24,010 nt of DNA from a virus (lineage: Duplodnaviria; Caudoviricetes), in IMG/VR virus record IMGVR_UViG_3300009320_000446, positions 1 to 24,010 of that record; one strand, 5' to 3'. The translations under genes and the position numbers were made by a program. Of this stretch, positions 1-6,396 are shown in pieces. Position 1 is the first letter of the stretch. The number at the start of each line of letters is the position of its first letter. Under the pieces are notes generated by a model, which made no database searches, was not told the origin of the DNA, and worked only from the letters and a program-made list of their open reading frames with translations.

Positions 1-104
1 ACCCCCCCCACAGGCGTGGAGTCAAATCCAAAATGTCGGGGCTTTTCTTTTGTGGGTTGACATGTGCTATGATACGAGCACCTACTTGCTTACCCACCTA
101 CATC

Positions 105-419
105 ATGGCTAAAACAAGCAAGGAATCACTAACAAGTCCTAATGAGCTAGGCGCCATCGAGCGATCTTATTATGTTATTGTAAAGGAGCAGCGCAAGAAA
201 CTTCCAGATGGCAATGAGGACAATGTTGAGGATCGTTATGAAATGGGGATGACTCATTATTTCGTGCACGGTGTTTATAGTTCATCAGAGGCTATCACGG
301 AGGTTGAATCTCTTTTTTGTACTAACGGCGTAGGGAGGCAAATGACAGTTAAGGAGTCGGTAGCTGTGAAGGCATTTAATCGTGGGGATGGTTTTGTAGA
401 AGTTTTTGAGATGCAATGA
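105..419 (+). CDS. Hypothetical protein (104 aa; start revised from 33 to 105)
   Basis: Extended -10 TGcTATGAT at 65-73, then the C/T-rich leader CTACTTGCTTACCCACCTACATC before ATG105. ATGA overlap with the next gene. Confidence 0.7.
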   Translation: MAKTSKESLTSPNELGAIERSYYVIVKEQRKKLPDGNEDNVEDRYEMGMTHYFVHGVYSSSEAITEVESLFCTNGVGRQMTVKESVAVKAFNRGDGFVEVFEMQ

Positions 420-628
420 GAAAGATTTATCCACGTCATCACTTTGCGGCGCGATTCCCAAGGTTTCTAGTCTTTGCCGAATCTGGGAGACTATTTTCTG
501 AGGCAGAAGGGAAATTCCCAAAAAATGTTGCAACGGAAATTCAAAGGTTTTTTGACGAGGAAGGAGTTGTCAGCCCCTATGAATTCTATTTTGATAATTT
601 CGGAAATGTGGTGATCTATTGGGCTTGA
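416..628 (+). CDS. Hypothetical protein (70 aa)
   Basis: ATGA translational coupling to the upstream ORF. Fills the gap to the next promoter. Confidence 0.7.
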   Translation: MRKIYPRHHFAARFPRFLVFAESGRLFSEAEGKFPKNVATEIQRFFDEEGVVSPYEFYFDNFGNVVIYWA

Positions 629-679
629 CCCACCTAAACACCTCTAGCAAGTCCCCTTTTATTTTGGTAGACTGTGGAT

Positions 680-868
680 ATGAAGATATTTGTTGTTGAT
701 TTCTCCCCGATGTGGCCTGTTCCGTGTGGTCTTGTTATAGCTGCAAAAGACAAGAAGGAGGCAAGGAAAATAGCGAAGGAGACTATCAGCCACACAAAAG
801 AGATTTACGTCAAAGAAGTTGATACATCTGAATCAAAGGTTATTTTTTATGAAAGTGGGGATTATTAA
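680..868 (+). CDS. Small hypothetical phage protein (62 aa; start revised to 680)
   Basis: ATG680 lies 6 nt after a -10 box. The VIAAKDKKEARKIA motif is typical of small phage alpha/beta proteins. Confidence 0.75.
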   Translation: MKIFVVDFSPMWPVPCGLVIAAKDKKEARKIAKETISHTKEIYVKEVDTSESKVIFYESGDY

Positions 869-908
869 TCCCCTTACACCTCCTTCTGACTTTTGATACC
901 ATAGAACC

Positions 909-1100
909 ATGCTTACTGTTAAGGATAAGAAATCAACGGAAGAAAAGATGGCTCGCCTATTGGTGGAGAAGGAAATGAGACTCAAAGGACGAGTAATCAA
1001 TCTAAAAGAAGCTAGGGCAGTCATAAGAGATTTTGGTGTATGGGAAAAAACCCCAGACAGAAAACACGCCTTAACTATTCTTTATACTGGATTTGGTTGA
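909..1100 (+). CDS. Small hypothetical protein (63 aa)
   Basis: Leaderless promoter TGaTACCAT-N6-ATG. Confidence 0.75.
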   Translation: MLTVKDKKSTEEKMARLLVEKEMRLKGRVINLKEARAVIRDFGVWEKTPDRKHALTILYTGFG

Positions 1101-1140
1101 CCCCCCTACACCCTCCCTTGATTTATGGTATGCTAGGGGT

Positions 1141-1341
1141 ATGAAAGTCCACTACGTTACCCCTACTGGCGAAGAGGAAGATATAGCCTTCTGGGATAAA
1201 GATATTACACACAAGAATAAAGAGTTTGGCTGTCTGGCGTTTTTCTATGATAAGGAATACGCTGAAATGTATGCTGATTTTCTCCAAGGGCATGAGCACT
1301 TGGATATTGACTACGAGGTGAGAAGTGTTGAGTTGCCTTGA
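1141..1341 (+). CDS. Small hypothetical protein (66 aa; start revised from 1093 to 1141)
   Basis: TGgTATGCT-N6-ATG1141, in frame with the ORF-track call. Confidence 0.75.
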   Translation: MKVHYVTPTGEEEDIAFWDKDITHKNKEFGCLAFFYDKEYAEMYADFLQGHEHLDIDYEVRSVELP

Positions 1342-1370
1342 TTTATACAATAGGGGTGTATAATTGAGAT

Positions 1371-1583
1371 ATGTTCTCAAAACCAGTGCCAGAAGCAGAG
1401 TTCTACGAGGAGCATGAGCCTGATGTCGCTTGTTGCCATTCGGATTTAAGATTGTCTCGCAGGAATTATTATATATTTTGCGGTGGATGTGGGATGCAAT
1501 GGATGCCTGTTACTGATCCAACAGGAAATTCTGTGGCACATCTTCCATATAGAAAAATAGCTAAAATGAAAGCTGTGGCTTGA
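1371..1583 (+). CDS. Small Cys-rich, putative zinc-ribbon protein (70 aa)
   Basis: TATAAT-N6-ATG. Contains CCH...CGGCG. Confidence 0.7.
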   Translation: MFSKPVPEAEFYEEHEPDVACCHSDLRLSRRNYYIFCGGCGMQWMPVTDPTGNSVAHLPYRKIAKMKAVA

Positions 1584-1616
1584 TTTATACAAGGGGAGTT
1601 CTGCTATACTCTTTGC

Positions 1617-1775
1617 ATGAAATCTCTAAGTAACATGTGGAATGACCTAGTGCTCATCCTCACAGTGGCTTTTTGGGACAGGCTTGGAGAGGAATTCACA
1701 AAGGACTTGGTGCTTATGGAAAAAGATGGGAAGAGGTTTTTTTGTCCAAAGCAATATCTTGAAATGGGGCAGTAG
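1617..1775 (+). CDS. Small hypothetical protein (52 aa, MKSLSNMWNDLVLILTVAFWDRLGEEF...), not in the ORF track
   Basis: Read manually. TGcTATACT-N6-ATG1617, stop TAG at 1773-1775. Confidence 0.7.
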   Translation: MKSLSNMWNDLVLILTVAFWDRLGEEFTKDLVLMEKDGKRFFCPKQYLEMGQ

Positions 1776-1790
1776 TGCTACACTGGAGGC

Positions 1791-1886
1791 ATGTCAAACT
1801 TAGAATTCTTTGTAGTAATGGTTTTTATGGTTGTTGTAATGGCTGCCCCATTGTTGGTGTTAGCCTTGCGGCCTTTTGGCGTATAA
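1791..1886 (+). CDS. Single-pass membrane micropeptide (31 aa, MSNLEFFVVMVFMVVVMAAPLLVLALRPFGV)
   Basis: Read manually. TGcTACACT-N6-ATG1791, about 20 consecutive hydrophobic residues. Its TAA lies inside dif-like site 1. Confidence 0.65.
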   Translation: MSNLEFFVVMVFMVVVMAAPLLVLALRPFGV

Positions 1887-1903
1887 CACTCCTTATGCGA
1901 ATA
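1876..1903. other. dif-like tyrosine recombinase site 1 (11-6-11)
   Basis: TTGGCGTATAA-CACTCC-TTATGCGAATA. The imperfect palindrome CGTATAA-N6-TTATGCG resembles Xer binding arms. Confidence 0.6.
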
Positions 1904-1976
1904 TATTTCAATGAGAGATTAAGAATTGTCAATATGATCTATTTGCTTTAACTATTTGTTAAGGTAATATGCCTGT

Positions 1977-2273
1977 GTGATTAAGAAAGGCAAACTCCTA
2001 CGGCTTCTACGAGAATCATTGAATCTTAGGCAAGATGAGGTGGCTGAGGATTGTGGAATATCTGCCTCTTATCTGTGCTTGATTGAGGGTGGGTACAAAA
2101 CGCCAAGCGGGGCTGTACTTACTGATCTCGCCAATCGATACAATGTGCCAGCTATTCTATTTGAATGGAACGAGGATGACCTTGAGCGCACAACGAACAA
2201 AGAGGAACGAGAGCTTGTGGATAAGATTAATGGTTTTATGGATGCACTTCTCATGTTAATCCTAAAAAGATGA
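1977..2273 (+). CDS. XRE/Cro-family helix-turn-helix transcriptional regulator (98 aa)
   Basis: LRLLRESLNLRQDEVAEDCGISASYLCLIEGGYKTPS matches the HTH_3 pattern. GTG start 6 nt after TAATAT. Confidence 0.9.
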   Translation: MIKKGKLLRLLRESLNLRQDEVAEDCGISASYLCLIEGGYKTPSGAVLTDLANRYNVPAILFEWNEDDLERTTNKEERELVDKINGFMDALLMLILKR

Positions 2274-2431
2274 CCAACAATCCATTTGAACCACAGGACG
2301 GATTTCAGCACGATATCGAGTGCGAAGGCAAAGAGTGTGGGTGCTTCCAAAGAGCAAATGATCGCGGTTATGCCGTCTTTTGGGAAACAATGACATTCGA
2401 TGAATTTCAGAGGCGCTATAACTTCGTATAA
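2270..2431 (+). CDS. Small Cys-containing hypothetical protein (53 aa, MTNNPFEPQDGFQHDIECEGKECGCFQRANDRG...)
   Basis: Read manually. ATGA coupling to the HTH gene. Its stop TAA lies in the left arm of dif-like site 2. Confidence 0.6.
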   Translation: MTNNPFEPQDGFQHDIECEGKECGCFQRANDRGYAVFWETMTFDEFQRRYNFV

Positions 2432-2448
2432 AAGACATTATTGGAAGT
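2421..2448. other. dif/loxP-like tyrosine recombinase site 2
   Basis: ACTTCGTATAA-AAGACA-TTATTGGAAGT (11-6-11). Read as 13-8-13 (2418-2451), the left arm ATAACTTCGTATA equals the loxP arm and the right arm matches 10/13. Confidence 0.75.
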
Positions 2449-2450
2449 TG

Positions 2451-2459
2451 TGATATACT
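2451..2459 (+). promoter_or_regulatory. Extended -10 promoter for the 2525-2872 cassette
   Basis: TGaTATACT. The predicted TSS at about 2466 coincides with the start of the inverted repeat. Confidence 0.7.
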
Positions 2460-2466
2460 ATTCTCG

Positions 2467-2903
2467 GTTCCTTGTCAGCACAGGTCAGCCCTATTGGAAG
2501 AATAGGGATAACCCATTTTTTATCATGGAACATGAAGCCAAACCAGAACCAATTACAGAAGAAGAAAGACTAATCAGGCAAAAGAGAAGAGACTTGCGCG
2601 AAGCAAGGATTTCAAAGGCGAGAGCAGAAGTTGTTAAAAAACAAATAATCGAGGCATACGAAATCTTAGAAAGCATACGCTTCGATTATGTATCAGATAC
2701 AATGTTCAGAGATTACATTACCTGCGCCAAGAAGGAATTGGAGGGCGCACTATCAGATTTCCTGTTGTCGGAGATTTATCAGGAAGAAAAAGTCAATGAG
2801 GTCAAAAAGAAAACACCAAAAGAATATGATGCCTTCTTAAAGGCAAAGGAAGCGGAGCCAACACAAGGCTAATTTTTATTTATGACCTGTGCTGAAAGGG
2901 AAC
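2467..2903. repeat. 21-bp imperfect inverted repeat (2467-2487 / 2883-2903) enclosing one ORF
   Basis: GTTCCTTGTCAGCACAGGTCA versus TGACCTGTGCTGAAAGGGAAC: 13 bp perfect core, 19/21 Watson-Crick pairs, plus one G-U. Confidence 0.9.
2525..2872 (+). CDS. Hypothetical charged helical protein (115 aa; start revised from 2441 to 2525)
   Basis: ATG2525 follows the pyrimidine-rich leader ACCCATTTTTTATC and lies downstream of the promoter at 2451-2459. The longer TTG start lies upstream of that promoter. Confidence 0.75.
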   Translation: MEHEAKPEPITEEERLIRQKRRDLREARISKARAEVVKKQIIEAYEILESIRFDYVSDTMFRDYITCAKKELEGALSDFLLSEIYQEEKVNEVKKKTPKEYDAFLKAKEAEPTQG

Positions 2904-2931
2904 TTCGTATAAAAAAGACATTACACACCTT
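2902..2931. other. Degenerate dif-like site 3 (direct repeat of site 2)
   Basis: AACTTCGTATAAAAAAGACATTA (2901-2923) versus AACTTCGTATAAAAGACATTA (2420-2440): identical except for two extra A. The right arm has diverged. Confidence 0.65.
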
Positions 2932-2968
2932 GACTGTAACACCTGTTTCAGTTTATCGTTGTAATACT

Positions 2969-3015
2969 AGAGACACCGAACCAATAGTTCCAGCTGGGCG
3001 TTGGTCGCTGTCTCT
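2969..3015 (+). ncRNA. Possible structured RNA or pre-tRNA leader hairpin
   Basis: AGAGACA/TGTCTCT, CGA/TCG and CCAA/TTGG stack into a ~47-nt imperfect hairpin. It lies downstream of a candidate promoter TTGACT(2930)-N18-TATCGT(2954). Confidence 0.35.
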
Positions 3016-3022
3016 TTTGTTA

Positions 3023-3097
3023 GGACAACTAGCTCATTAGCAGAGCGCTCGGTCTACACCCGAGAGGTAAGATGTGCAATTCATCTGTTGTCCACCA
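3023..3097 (+). tRNA. trnV: tRNA-Val (anticodon UAC), atypical loops, CCA encoded
   Basis: Acceptor GGACAAC/GTTGTCC, D stem GCTC/GAGC, anticodon stem CTCGG/CCGAG with loop TC-TAC-AC, T stem AGATG/CATCT, discriminator A, then CCA. Confidence 0.9.
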
Positions 3098-3114
3098 TGT
3101 GTTACAATACAACT

Positions 3115-3159
3115 ATGCCCTGCAAAGGAAAAAAGCGGCGTTCTAAGAAAAAGAAATGA
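3115..3159 (+). CDS. Highly basic micropeptide (14 aa, MPCKGKKRRSKKKK)
   Basis: TGtTACAAT-N6-ATG3115. The stop overlaps the next start (ATGA at 3156-3159). Confidence 0.55.
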   Translation: MPCKGKKRRSKKKK

Positions 3160-3344
3160 GAATCCGCAAAACAAGGACGGCAACAGTACACTTTATTGAC
3201 TGTGAACATTGTGATTGGTCAGTAGGAGCTGCTACCCCCTCCCTTGCTGTTGAAATGTTAGAAGACCACATGTACCAGTTCCACAGAGACCCAGACTGGA
3301 ATATTAGCGGAACCACTGCTATTACTGCTACAATGAAAGCATGA
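3156..3344 (+). CDS. Small C2H2-like zinc-binding protein (62 aa)
   Basis: CEHC...HMYQFH motif. ATGA overlaps at both ends. Confidence 0.7.
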   Translation: MRIRKTRTATVHFIDCEHCDWSVGAATPSLAVEMLEDHMYQFHRDPDWNISGTTAITATMKA

Positions 3345-3523
3345 GGATAAGAGACTTACCCTACATGCATATGTGCAGAGGATCGAGTCTCAGAACTTTG
3401 CATAAGGCTCCATACTATTGGATATTAGACCATTGGAAGAGATTGCCTTGGTACTGCTGGCCGTTACTAACATATGCCAGCATCTTCCATGTTAAGAAGA
3501 TATGGAATACAATAGTCACATGA
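3341..3523 (+). CDS. Small aromatic-rich hypothetical protein (60 aa)
   Basis: TGcTACAAT-N6-ATG. Confidence 0.6.
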   Translation: MRIRDLPYMHMCRGSSLRTLHKAPYYWILDHWKRLPWYCWPLLTYASIFHVKKIWNTIVT

Positions 3524-3696
3524 AAAAAACAGTCTGTATTAATCCTTTCTTACATGTAGATGAGCACAAGCTGGAAATACGCGCCCAGGTTAAGGGAAAA
3601 GAAACTACAATAAAATCAATCCCTTTTTACAACAACAAAACAAAACGCAAAAAGAGCATAAAAGAATGCTTTGCCCTACTGGGTTTCAATATCTAA
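3520..3696 (+). CDS. Small basic hypothetical protein (58 aa; start revised to 3520)
   Basis: TTCCAT-N17-TACAAT-N6-ATG3520, ATGA overlap. Confidence 0.65.
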   Translation: MKKTVCINPFLHVDEHKLEIRAQVKGKETTIKSIPFYNNKTKRKKSIKECFALLGFNI

Positions 3697-3713
3697 AAAT
3701 GTTACTATAACCC

Positions 3714-3944
3714 ATGATGAAAAAACCTTCTGACAAAATCAAAGAAATCTACAACTCCAACAAAAAGGATGCTGAAACAGCACACAAAAAGCTGGATGCG
3801 ATTTACCAATACTTAGACGAAGCCCTACCAGAAAGAGTACAACTAGCAGCTATAATCCTTAGCTCTATGTTAGCTAATGGTAAATATGAAAAGGAAGAAG
3901 CTGCTAGAATAGCTTTAGACTCTGCTGACCTACTTCTACAATGA
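3714..3944 (+). CDS. Hypothetical phage protein (76 aa)
   Basis: Leaderless promoter. The C-terminal LAAIILSSMLAN...AARIALDSADLLL pattern is common in small phage helical-hairpin proteins. Confidence 0.75.
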   Translation: MMKKPSDKIKEIYNSNKKDAETAHKKLDAIYQYLDEALPERVQLAAIILSSMLANGKYEKEEAARIALDSADLLLQ

Positions 3945-4022
3945 AAAAGCTACAAGTCAAATTAGGCAACAGAAGAGGATTTGGGAATATCATTGACCCA
4001 GAAAATGTGATACAATCTAATC

Positions 4023-4376
4023 ATGAAAAAGAACGAGACAACAAAGGAAAAGAAAGTAAAGAAACAATCGAAACACAAAAACCTCTTAGCAGGTAATCCT
4101 GCTTGGGAGAAGGGGGGCAAGAGTCCTAATCCAGAAGGAAGACCTGACTCTGCTTGGACTTGGCGAGACTTGTTTGTAAAGATTGCAGATCAGAAAAAAG
4201 ATCAACTGACAAGAAAAGAGTTAGCTGCTGATGCTATATGGAATAGGATGGAAGATGGAGATGTTAAAGCGTTTGAGAAGGTTGCTGATAGGATGGAAGG
4301 AAAACCAGATCAGAATATAAATGCCACAGTGTCGGTGGCGGACAAGGTTAAAGAGGAGCTACAATCTACCAAGTGA
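4023..4376 (+). CDS. terS: Terminase small subunit (DUF5681-like, 117 aa)
   Basis: WEKGGKSPNPEGRP and GDVKAFEKVADRMEGKP motifs. Immediately upstream of, and overlapping, terL. Confidence 0.8.
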   Translation: MKKNETTKEKKVKKQSKHKNLLAGNPAWEKGGKSPNPEGRPDSAWTWRDLFVKIADQKKDQLTRKELAADAIWNRMEDGDVKAFEKVADRMEGKPDQNINATVSVADKVKEELQSTK

Positions 4377-5785
4377 ACCCAGCAGATGTCGCAGAAGTCT
4401 CGGCCTTTATCGCAAAAGAATTCAGAGATGATCCTGCAAGATATTGTAGAGCTGTCCTCCGCTTTACTCCTGACGAATGGCAAGAAAAGGTTTTGGATAG
4501 CATCAAACAACATAGACGAGTTGCTATCCGCTCTGGGCATGGAGTTGGAAAAACAAGATTGGCGGCCAGTGTCATTCATTGGTTCATTGCCACAAGGGCA
4601 AATCCCCAAATCGTGGTCACTGCTAACACACAATCCCAACTTAAAGACAAATCATGGAGAGAGCTCGCAAAGATAAATGAGAACGCTGTAAACAAGGATG
4701 CTTTTGAAATAACAGCTACAAGGTTCTCAATGAAAGGATCAGATACTTGGTTTGCTTCTGCTGTTCCACACAGAGAAGAGAAGCCTGAAGCGTTTGCAGG
4801 AACACACGAAGAGAATGTCTTGATGGTATTCGATGAAGCCTCTGCTATCCCTGAAATCATTTGGGAAACATCGGCGGGGGCAATGACTACTAAAGGTGCT
4901 AGATGGTTAGTACTTGGAAACCCGACGCGGAACACTGGAAAGTTCCACGAGTGCTTTGGGCTTAATAAATGGCAAGAGGGTGACAGCAAAGACTCAGGAA
5001 AATGGCATACGTTCACTGTTTCTTGCTTGGATGTCCCAAGAGTTGATAGAAGTTACATAACTGAGATTGAGCGTGAATACGGTAGGACATCTGATCCTTA
5101 TAGAGTTCGTGTATTGGGATTGCCACCACAGCAGGAGGAGCAGCAATTCATTTCTGCTGAGTTATATGAAAAGGCTTTATACAACAAAGTACAAACATTT
5201 CCACATGAACCTAAAACATTAGGAGTTGACGTTGCAAGGTTTGGGAATGATAGATCGGTGTTAGTTGAGCGGAAGGGTAAAGAAATGAGATTGATTAAAA
5301 TGCTTAGGGGGCAAGATACAATGCAGATAGTTGGCCAAGTTATAAATGCAATAGAACAAGCAGATTATGAAGGTGAGCCCTATACATTTGTTTGCGTCGA
5401 TGTAATTGGTATTGGGGCAGGCGTGCTGGATAGACTGAAAGAGCAAAAGATTGATGTAATAGGAGTAAATGTCTCTGAAAAACCAAGAATGGAAGATTGT
5501 AAGAATATGAGAGCAGAACTGTGGAAGAGATATAAACAATGGTTGAATGAGGGGTCGCTTACAGAAGAATTTAGAGAAGATACGATTGGTATTTATTACA
5601 GCTTTGATTCAAATGGAAAGCTTGTAATGGAGAGAAAGGAGGATATGAAGAGGAGAGGGTTAGCTTCGCCAGATATCGCGGATGCAGCGTGTATGACCTT
5701 TTATCCTTTGCTTACAGAGAAGCCGTCACAAAAGAAAAAGAAGCGCCGTGCAAGTACTGGATGGCAGAAGCAGGTGGGGCTATGA
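4373..5785 (+). CDS. terL: Terminase large subunit (470 aa)
   Basis: Walker A SGHGVGKT, Walker B MVFDEAS, coupling motif GNP, RNase H-like nuclease LGVDVARFGNDRSV ... SPDIADA. Confidence 0.97.
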   Translation: MNPADVAEVSAFIAKEFRDDPARYCRAVLRFTPDEWQEKVLDSIKQHRRVAIRSGHGVGKTRLAASVIHWFIATRANPQIVVTANTQSQLKDKSWRELAKINENAVNKDAFEITATRFSMKGSDTWFASAVPHREEKPEAFAGTHEENVLMVFDEASAIPEIIWETSAGAMTTKGARWLVLGNPTRNTGKFHECFGLNKWQEGDSKDSGKWHTFTVSCLDVPRVDRSYITEIEREYGRTSDPYRVRVLGLPPQQEEQQFISAELYEKALYNKVQTFPHEPKTLGVDVARFGNDRSVLVERKGKEMRLIKMLRGQDTMQIVGQVINAIEQADYEGEPYTFVCVDVIGIGAGVLDRLKEQKIDVIGVNVSEKPRMEDCKNMRAELWKRYKQWLNEGSLTEEFREDTIGIYYSFDSNGKLVMERKEDMKRRGLASPDIADAACMTFYPLLTEKPSQKKKKRRASTGWQKQVGL

Positions 5786-5792
5786 TGGGGGT

Positions 5793-6008
5793 ATGTCATG
5801 CAACCATGACTTTCCGCCTTTCTTACGTGGCAGGAGAAAGTGTAAGGCATGTGGGCTGCGTGAGATTGAGATTAGGAATGAGCGTACGTATGTAGCTCGT
5901 GATGGTGATAGGTTTGTTCCAGTGGCTGACTATTCTAAGAATCTGTATAGGGTGGTATTGCCATATGTGGATTCGGTCTTGTTGTCTGTTAGAAGTAGGT
6001 TAAGATAG
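5793..6008 (+). CDS. Small zinc-finger-like protein (71 aa; start revised to 5793)
   Basis: TATGAT(5781-5786)-N6-ATG5793. CNH...CKACG motif. Confidence 0.7.
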   Translation: MSCNHDFPPFLRGRRKCKACGLREIEIRNERTYVARDGDRFVPVADYSKNLYRVVLPYVDSVLLSVRSRLR

Positions 6009-6012
6009 GGAT

Positions 6013-6396
6013 ATGGATGTAAGAGAGGCAACAAGATTGAGCAACTACATATTCTATGTCTCTTGTGATCTTAATACTTGTCTTGAGTCTCTTTTGTCCA
6101 GAATAGAGAAGTTAGAAGGGCAGAAGTTTTATGATACTAATGAGGTAAGAAAAGATTTTAGCTTATGTAAGACGAATCTTCACCATTCCTTTGAGAGACT
6201 AAGAGAGCTAATATGTGAGTATATGGATTGGGATTGGGAAGAGCTGGCACACATACTTGCTGAGAAAATCGGTGAGAACATGAAGATCACACAAGAGGAG
6301 ATTGACAAGCCTAAGAAGGTTATATTTGAGAAGGGTGATGGCTTCTATTTGATCTCGCAAGAGAATAAATATTCTGTCAATAGAACTAGAGAATAA
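6013..6396 (+). CDS. Hypothetical protein (127 aa)
   Basis: TAAGAT(6001-6006)-N6-ATG. Confidence 0.75.
   Translation: MDVREATRLSNYIFYVSCDLNTCLESLLSRIEKLEGQKFYDTNEVRKDFSLCKTNLHHSFERLRELICEYMDWDWEELAHILAEKIGENMKITQEEIDKPKKVIFEKGDGFYLISQENKYSVNRTRE

Follow-up and report, generated by a model that had tools for sequence, protein, structure and literature searches.

The stretch of DNA analysed here (the window) is an entire 24,010-bp viral contig (IMG/VR record IMGVR_UViG_3300009320_000446) from a tailed phage, a fuller copy of which exists as a 44,670-bp record rated 100% complete; the two were identical over all 15,782 bp compared. Small genes lie upstream of the terminase gene (4373-5785), and three dif-type sites are found in that region. 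Between sites 2 and 3 lies a 481-bp unit, a mini-gene for a protein of 115 amino acids (aa) closed by a co-varying inverted repeat that likely pairs in the mRNA like the leader-trailer helix of ribosomal RNA (rRNA). The explanation we prefer, at a probability of about 0.45, combines sites for the Xer recombinase of the host, one past insertion of the stem-closed unit, which was then locked in place by decay of site 3, and processing of the transcript in the style of rRNA. The helix is an inherited part of the cassette, and the dif-type flanks are particular to this phage.

Table 1. Features in and around the two modules, in window coordinates; ORF, open reading frame; HTH, helix-turn-helix
Feature	Position	Strand	Remarks
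Putative 31-aa ORF, hydrophobic	1791-1886	+	Stop codon within the left arm of site 1
Site 1	1876-1903		11-6-11, near-symmetric, arm symmetry 7/11, centre CACTCC; best match in the phage, 25.4 bits
Weak sigma70-like promoter match before the HTH gene	1911-1938	+	9/12 positions
XRE-family HTH gene, 98 aa	1977-2273	+	Pfam HTH_31, E 3e-10
Orphan ORF, 53 aa	2270-2431	+	Last codons and stop make up the left arm of site 2
Site 2	2421-2448		11-6-11, arm symmetry 9/11, centre AAGACA; total 19.1 bits
Predicted promoter of the 115-aa gene	2432-2459	+	Extended -10 (TG + TATACT, 2454-2459); -35 position coincides with the centre of site 2
Helix, 5' arm	2467-2487	+	Opens with a boxA-like word
Conserved 7-bp hairpin in the 5' leader	2489-2507	+	GGAAN loop
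115-aa protein, unnamed family	2525-2872	+	Two long helices and a short one predicted
Helix, 3' arm	2883-2903	+	Final two bases inside site 3
Site 3	2902-2931		11-8-11, symmetry 6/11, left arm equal to that of site 2; total 15.5 bits
Promoter-like match upstream of the tRNA	2930-2959	+	Abuts site 3
tRNA-Val(TAC)	3023-3097	+	Sole Rfam match within 1-4400

Three dif-type sites and their match in Patescibacteria

A preliminary description of this DNA had placed three sites around two small gene modules, and all three sequences are indeed present (Table 1). The 11-6-11 geometry holds for sites 1 and 2, each of which has two partly dyad-symmetric 11-bp arms around a 6-bp centre, as in Xer/dif sites, but not for site 3, which is 11-8-11 and thus departs from the canonical 28-bp form. 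The left and right arms of site 2 score 16.2 and 2.9 bits, respectively, in the matrix described below, and the right arm of site 3 has decayed (-0.7 bits). The word CGTATAA-N6-8-TTAT occurred twice against an expectation of 0.03, a count reached by none of 100 shuffles, and CGYATAA-N6-8-TTA gave five strand matches, compared to an average of 0.15, and never as many as five, in 300 order-3 Markov sequences. A looser ATAA-N6-TTAT core was not enriched (four against 1.3, with 40 of the 300 null sequences reaching four). The full motif is therefore far above chance in the comparison with shuffled sequence that had been proposed, and the three sites are not chance occurrences. Site 2 presumably resembles loxP.

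The contents of the modules were also confirmed, with the XRE-family HTH gene and a 53-aa ORF between sites 1 and 2 and the 115-aa ORF between sites 2 and 3. Two ORFs end on the TAA of a left arm (1884-1886 and 2429-2431), as had been pointed out; this is weak evidence, because one in every three frames entering the arm would meet that TAA. Sites 2 and 3 do share the left arm and spacer save for a slippage of AA. The shared stretch is a 14-nt exact repeat (at 2420 and 2901, copies 481 bp apart) that resumes for 7 nt past the 2-nt indel; only four exact 14-mers, this one included, recur in the window. In a second study, a contig covering 2668-3007 showed zero differences and an unchanged site 3, which makes an assembly error an unlikely source of the 8-bp centre. 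The centres of sites 1 and 2 agree at two of six positions in direct and at none in inverted orientation.

Sites of the same type were found in Patescibacteria, a group of ultra-small bacteria. A symmetric WCGYATAA-N6-TTATRCG is present in 26 of 301 genomes of this group (reversed control, 3) and in none of 81 Acidobacteriota genomes, which are larger. The Patescibacteria sites are near-symmetric and mostly single-copy, and several have dif-like centres; three genomes (G066, G279 and G293) carry two or three symmetric sites, not one. The left arm of three of the 27 Patescibacteria sites is identical to that of sites 2 and 3 at all 11 positions, in the orientation as printed. Three of the five site-bearing genomes that were checked have one tyrosine recombinase, and in G279 a symmetric site lies ~470 bp from a tyrosine-recombinase gene. 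The GC skew turns from plus to minus near the site in two of three large contigs (G172 and G246), at a coarse and noisy sampling.

In a scoring matrix built from the 27 Patescibacteria sites, which themselves score 23.0 to 32.6 bits, sites 1 to 3 obtained the top three scores in the 44.7-kb phage, and the next independent place reached 5.9 bits. The best score per genome-length Markov sequence had a mean of 5.4, a 95th percentile of 11.4 and a maximum of 20.5 bits (n = 150). Site 2 alone exceeds the 95th percentile of these genome-wide null maxima, and its 16.2-bit left arm is the top single-arm score in the phage. A comparison with the dif site of the host had been suggested; the phage sites match the Patescibacteria site, with a partly circular matrix and with a host that we infer to belong to Patescibacteria. 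The earlier guess of a single recombinase acting on near-symmetric arms is reasonable, since the Patescibacteria sites are near-symmetric and the phage sites score highly in the matrix built from them, and it fits the one tyrosine recombinase in three of five genomes. That the window holds no recombinase gene, as had been remarked, extends to the full record: PF00589 had no match in the 44,670 bp (serine recombinases were outside this search), and the positive control was found in 14 of 14 genomes. Judged by their sequences, the sites are likely bound by the single Xer recombinase of the host, and for site 1 at least we regard such binding as probable.

Closing helix, leader hairpin and product of the 115-aa gene

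An inverted repeat of 21 to 22 bp closes the 115-aa gene; like the hairpin in the leader and the tRNA-Val gene, it was absent from the preliminary description. The stretch 2460-2910 folds with a z score of -4.1. Homologues of the gene were found at 51 distinct loci, 44 of them with complete flanks, from which 35 non-redundant loci (<85% identity) were taken. By ungapped helix scoring, which replaced an overly permissive duplex-energy scoring, the helix is present in 21 of these 35 loci (the window included) compared to 4 of 133 other ORFs of the same loci. Two of those four are unrelated genes of locus L041 with the same kind of helix. The own 3' arm outscored every foreign arm in 20 of the 21 loci. 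L041 holds three stem-closed genes of unrelated families (2997-3479, 3916-4400 and 5630-6034).

RNAalifold on 18 selected cassettes gave a 19-bp closing helix and the 7-bp hairpin with a covariation term of -6.3 kcal/mol, and 23 of 28 pairs showed compensatory change. Column-wise covariation was taken from this run because the stems of L042 and L067 were out of register in an earlier alignment. In 22 stems anchored by Watson-Crick pairs only, G-U pairs outnumbered A-C pairs by 56:13 on the coding strand, indicating that the strand that pairs is that of the transcript. On the strand that is transcribed, a long, co-varying helix thus connects the 5' flank to the 3' flank, as around rRNA genes, and what it encloses is the 115-aa ORF, not an rRNA. 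We have little doubt that the RNA helix is real and selected. A -10 element comparable to that of the predicted promoter lies upstream of the helix arm in L045, L047 and L078.

The leader hairpin occurs in 20 of 24 stems of the family (three of the matches overlap an ATG) and in neither of the two unrelated L041 stems. A scan with the hairpin pattern gave 79 matches, and only one of them is a true cassette, previously known, so the scan is uninformative on whether the hairpin is exclusive to the family. A scan with the inverted-repeat pattern gave two other matches, both unrelated. Binding of CsrA to the GGA loop was set aside, its context being YGGAA and not ANGGA, which we take to be the CsrA motif. 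Genes for tRNA were seen beside several cassettes: in L076 (18-3194), a stem-closed homologue is directly preceded by 22 of them, encoded on the opposite strand, and a tRNA is also near the cassette in L041, L047 and L074.

The base of the helix resembles rRNA leader sequences. The boxA consensus is GYTCTTTAANA (PMC5725501), and 6 of 24 family 5' arms match it exactly. Among 30 Patescibacteria 16S genes, 29 have a leader-trailer helix of the same size (score 39 to 66), and six Patescibacteria 16S helices start, as judged by eye, with a GYTCYTT word. At one Patescibacteria 16S locus, L264, the sequence and register of the helix base are those of several phage stems. The enzymes that would act on such a helix are common in this group: RNase III is present in 148 of 151 genomes and NusB in 37 of 41. 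In many of the listed genomes (e.g. G046, G019, G014 and G042), nusB and the RNase III gene are no more than ~1 kb apart. The rRNA helix of E. coli needs more than 17 bp, and tethering by boxA is thought to aid its formation (PMC10250234). We somewhat favour RNase III as the reader of the phage helix.

The helix is not confined to this protein family. A scan for the 5' arm that ignored the proteins gave 21 viral matches, six of which have a downstream partner arm at 260 to 408 nt (five scoring 41 to 45 and one 32; upstream partners scored at most 32). Five of these six units enclose one ORF of 79 to 122 aa that is not detectably related to the 115-aa protein (hhalign probability 0.1%). These proteins form a second unnamed family within the same helix (L100, L101, L103, L108, L109 and L169). 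In L100, a 3'-arm-like sequence just upstream of the unit suggests tandem cassettes. In L094, a 273-kb phage, the helix (1501-1834) encloses 288 nt, with a promoter-like sequence before it and a tRNA directly after it; no long ORF and no Rfam match were found in the 288 nt, which are a candidate for a new RNA. In the genome collection, the 5'-arm pattern gave 96 matches, mostly by chance (a partner score of at least 30 was reached by four downstream and four upstream). Only L137 and L169 scored above 40, in phage-like or accessory stretches of contigs labelled Acidobacteriota.

AlphaFold2 predicted helices at residues 12-49, 59-95 and 98-110 of the 115-aa protein, with a mean predicted local distance difference test score of 83.5. 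A profile search recovered 44 representatives at 50% clustering, with a conserved D-T-x-F-R turn and a D-F-L-L motif. No Pfam, PHROG or NCBIfam family, no significant fold in the Protein Data Bank (best Foldseek E 0.32), no usable match in the Atlas and no match among GenBank phages was found for it. With 23 Lys and Arg against 26 Asp and Glu residues, the protein is slightly acidic overall, and its N-terminal helix is rich in Lys and Arg. Our guess is that the protein binds its own leader hairpin, because the hairpin co-occurs with the family and the N-terminal helix is basic.

A proposed past insertion and other explanations

Sites 2 and 3 have the look of paired scars from one insertion. 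The left arm and the centre are duplicated, as expected if a small circle had integrated once. When the nearest cassettes are aligned, similarity appears to extend from the promoter and the right arm of site 2 as far as the left arm of site 3, ending about both centres; this alignment is short and AT-rich, covers flanks that are also promoter-like, and is suggestive only. The unit would have entered as a small circle whose dif-type site had the centre AAGACA. One Xer crossover would have integrated it and produced sites 2 and 3 as direct repeats with a common centre, and the gain of 2 nt in site 3 would then have locked it in place. Site 1 is likely either the intact site of the phage, with a role in integration or in the resolution of dimers, or the border that closes the XRE module on its outer side. 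Transcription would start just upstream of 2467, and the boxA-like 5' arm would recruit Nus factors of the host and then pair with the 3' arm. Cleavage of the helix by host RNase III would release a closed-end mRNA, the helical product of which may bind the GGAAN hairpin of its own leader.

Several results weigh against this combination of host-Xer sites, one insertion and rRNA-style processing. The exact symmetric pattern is missing from 275 of the 301 Patescibacteria genomes, the skew test failed in G014, and the matrix is partly circular because the search pattern was derived from the motif of the window. The 115-aa family was absent from the genome contig collection (26 candidates, none confirmed), the HTH gene was not found in the 301 Patescibacteria genomes, and the contigs of both genome matches with a closing stem carry the label Acidobacteriota. 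Within 600 nt, the dif score does not exceed 8.4 bits at any of the 34 other homologous 115-aa loci, a few of which have short flanks, and all three sites lie at promoter-like positions. Recombined joints or loose ends were not found in the contigs of three runs, which drop rare forms; two of the runs (X2 and X3) cover parts of the site 1-3 stretch only. No relative in the searched collections could show an empty site. On the RNA side, 14 of the 35 homologous loci fall under the helix cut-off, and the cassettes used for covariation had been selected for having stems and are related by descent. Among the loci under the cut-off, L045 has a short helix, and in L049 and L058 the 3' arm lies 157 and 196 nt further on, respectively. 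L054 had been given a wrong start and was scored as a miss, and 11 homologous loci showed no helix by the tests used. Finally, the boxA-like word of the window is degenerate (7 of 10 defined positions, the consensus being gamma-proteobacterial) and lies inside the helix.

Close relatives of this phage were not found. A terminase search over 28 loci gave the same phage (100%) or distant ones only. The best of the other terminases were 33 to 46% identical, one 31-residue piece excepted, and the best GenBank phage reached 44%. Close relatives of the HTH and 53-aa genes were looked for and not found, and the module between sites 1 and 2 is thus without comparison. The core of site 2 matched this phage alone in the viral contig collection, and no empty site was obtained there.

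The preliminary description had proposed that the phage gains modules through a tyrosine recombinase. Taken in full, this would be a working system like the pdif modules of plasmids, in which a host or phage enzyme routinely swaps both modules and each centre is the address for exchange with the genomes of other phages. Three top-scoring sites at gene borders within 1.05 kb would fit such a system, and unlike centres flanking one module are normal under co-integrate formation (PMC13141974). However, pdif recombination needs identical or near-identical 6-bp centres (PMC13141974), the centres of sites 1 and 2 are mismatched, and site 3 combines a centre of 8 bp with an arm that scores -0.7 bits. 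With no empty site or recombined joint, no swap observed and homologous cassettes that lack sites, an active system is unsupported, and we consider this explanation unlikely. Sites 2 and 3 would match as recombination partners but for the 2-nt gain. We also did not find distinct XerC and XerD arms alternating as C/D and D/C: the arms are near-symmetric and none is of the XerD type (TTATGTTAA), so there is no such alternation, unlike in pdif modules. The 115-aa module was not found between such sites in other replicons, nor does the phage encode a cognate Cre-type recombinase as expected for Cre/loxP.

Among 107 viral loci with this type of site, only 80 of which are at least 3 kb long, a second one is close by in only four, namely L334, L339, L367 and the present phage, which is few for a shuffling system. 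L339 (1786-3025) speaks for it in having two symmetric dif-type sites with unlike centres around one 389-aa gene, beside tail genes. The L367 pair (79-761) speaks against it, since its two symmetric sites, whose centres match, lie in inverted orientation within a tail-fibre-like gene, in what looks like an invertible segment. In a further set of phages (L209, L212, L218, L219, L222, L223 and L227), each has one near-palindromic 11-6-11 site whose right arm is TTATCGGAA, resembling site 2, and no second site was found within 1.5 kb.

A doubtful explanation of another kind is that only site 1 is functional and that sites 2 and 3 are a short duplication left by illegitimate or microhomology-based insertion of the stem-closed unit. 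Their arms would then resemble dif through overlap with TATAA-rich promoter sequence and the end of an ORF. The inner arms indeed align with promoter-like flanks of cassettes that have no dif-type site, L047 has an extended -10 at the position of the left arm of site 3, the centre of site 2 doubles as the predicted -35, and the right arms of both sites score poorly. Against this explanation stand the two 16.2-bit left arms, identical to Patescibacteria arms at 11 of 11 positions, and the score of site 2 above the 95th percentile of the null maxima; the repeated stretch, moreover, consists of left arm, centre and TTA, which is what a crossover within the centre should leave.

It is improbable that the sites are operators of the XRE protein, through which it would repress the tRNA unit and the 115-aa gene as well as its own promoter. 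Promoter-like matches overlap or adjoin all three sites, the XRE gene sits between sites 1 and 2, and the phage encodes no tyrosine recombinase. However, such promoter-like matches are no commoner than in shuffles (6 against 8.9), the arms match a class of site kept in genomes in which the HTH gene was not found, and 11-6-11 is the geometry of Xer sites (PMC5357621). That the inverted repeat acts at the DNA level, as the terminal repeat of a small non-autonomous transposable element, is hardly credible, even if it encloses one gene found in many different neighbourhoods, given the 56:13 excess of G-U over A-C on the coding strand, arms that vary freely while pairing is kept, and like helices around 16S rRNA genes and the non-coding stretch of L094 beside a tRNA.

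The most novel explanation is a two-layer arrangement, to which we give little credence. Phages of Patescibacteria would carry plug-in genes as miniature rRNA operons, each unit consisting of a promoter, boxA, a leader-trailer helix and one ORF or non-coding RNA, processed into closed-end RNAs by Nus factors and RNase III of the host and captured at loxP-like sites by its single symmetric Xer recombinase. The RNA clamp would then serve expression and the DNA joint mobility.

Some neighbouring features were also recorded. In the window, 1-1620 holds very small genes in series, each preceded by its own promoter-like stretch and almost without a leader, and a 14-nt exact repeat at 1337 and 1579 belongs to two of these promoter-like stretches. 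In the part of the same phage upstream of the window (L002, 1282-1814 and 1893-1921), two genes are oriented opposite to their downstream neighbours, and the pair ends near a lone strong dif-type arm (14.5 bits) without a good partner arm. The ends of record G001 (start of L030, end of L031) hold a low-complexity ORF of Arg-Gly and Trp-Ser-Gly repeats, probably the break point of a circular assembly.

Comparison with known systems

In the functions proposed for them, the sites and the helix both build on known mechanisms. In the literature, we found no description of a phage ORF closed by an rRNA-like helix or of dif-bounded cassettes in phages (most subscription journals and supplements were outside the search), and no paper on dif in Patescibacteria (the supplements, which may contain dif tables of candidate phyla, were likewise outside it). 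The element is not described in the available part of the Minerva preprint (10.64898/2026.09.22.753630). If the helix works as proposed, uncultured phages package single genes in the rRNA-maturation signals of their host, which would be a mode of mRNA control of which no description was found. Should the sites be Xer substrates, they would point to a dif site of Patescibacteria and to a compact single-enzyme system like Cre/lox, give a clue to the host of orphan phages, and offer a route by which a phage without an integrase may gain genes.

The closest counterpart of the helix is the precursor of 16S and 23S rRNA, in which a co-varying helix of more than 17 bp with boxA near its base surrounds one gene (PMC10250234, PMC4838370, PMC5725501). 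The phage unit differs in enclosing a protein gene of ~350 nt, in its added GGAAN hairpin and in having the boxA-like word inside the arm, and its cleavage by RNase III, which acts on pre-rRNA, is a prediction. ORF-bearing intervening sequences of 23S rRNA (PMC4990558) are likewise elements of ~400 nt with a small ORF; they are excised by RNase III, as the phage unit may be, and the excised RNA is rapidly degraded (PMC4990558). Unlike them, the phage unit lies outside rRNA, has its own predicted promoter and does not encode a protein of the S23 four-helix-bundle family, as the lack of a Pfam or NCBIfam match implies. The nut site of lambda (PMC10250234) also combines a boxA-like word with a purine-loop hairpin that follows it, and a small protein with a Lys/Arg-rich N-terminal helix. 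However, no link to N in sequence or fold was found, the 115-aa protein is slightly acidic, and a closing helix is not a feature of nut.

The sites resemble the pdif modules of Acinetobacter Rep_3 plasmids (PMC13141974), in which 28-bp 11-6-11 sites border small accessory genes. The left arms of the phage sites are similar to the tabulated XerC arms, and in both cases the element has no recombinase and the centres on the two sides of a module differ. Unlike those modules, the phage sites are found in a tailed phage, number only three, one of them decayed, and have not been observed to shuffle. Dif-like sites of phages often have longer centres and one degenerate arm (PMC3025954). In XerA/dif, XerS/difSL, XerH/difH and IMEX (PMC5357621), one enzyme acts on both arms and mobile DNA uses the enzyme of the host, as we propose for this phage. 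The differences from these systems are that the matching sites are those of Patescibacteria and that the event would have brought a gene into a phage, not a phage into a chromosome.

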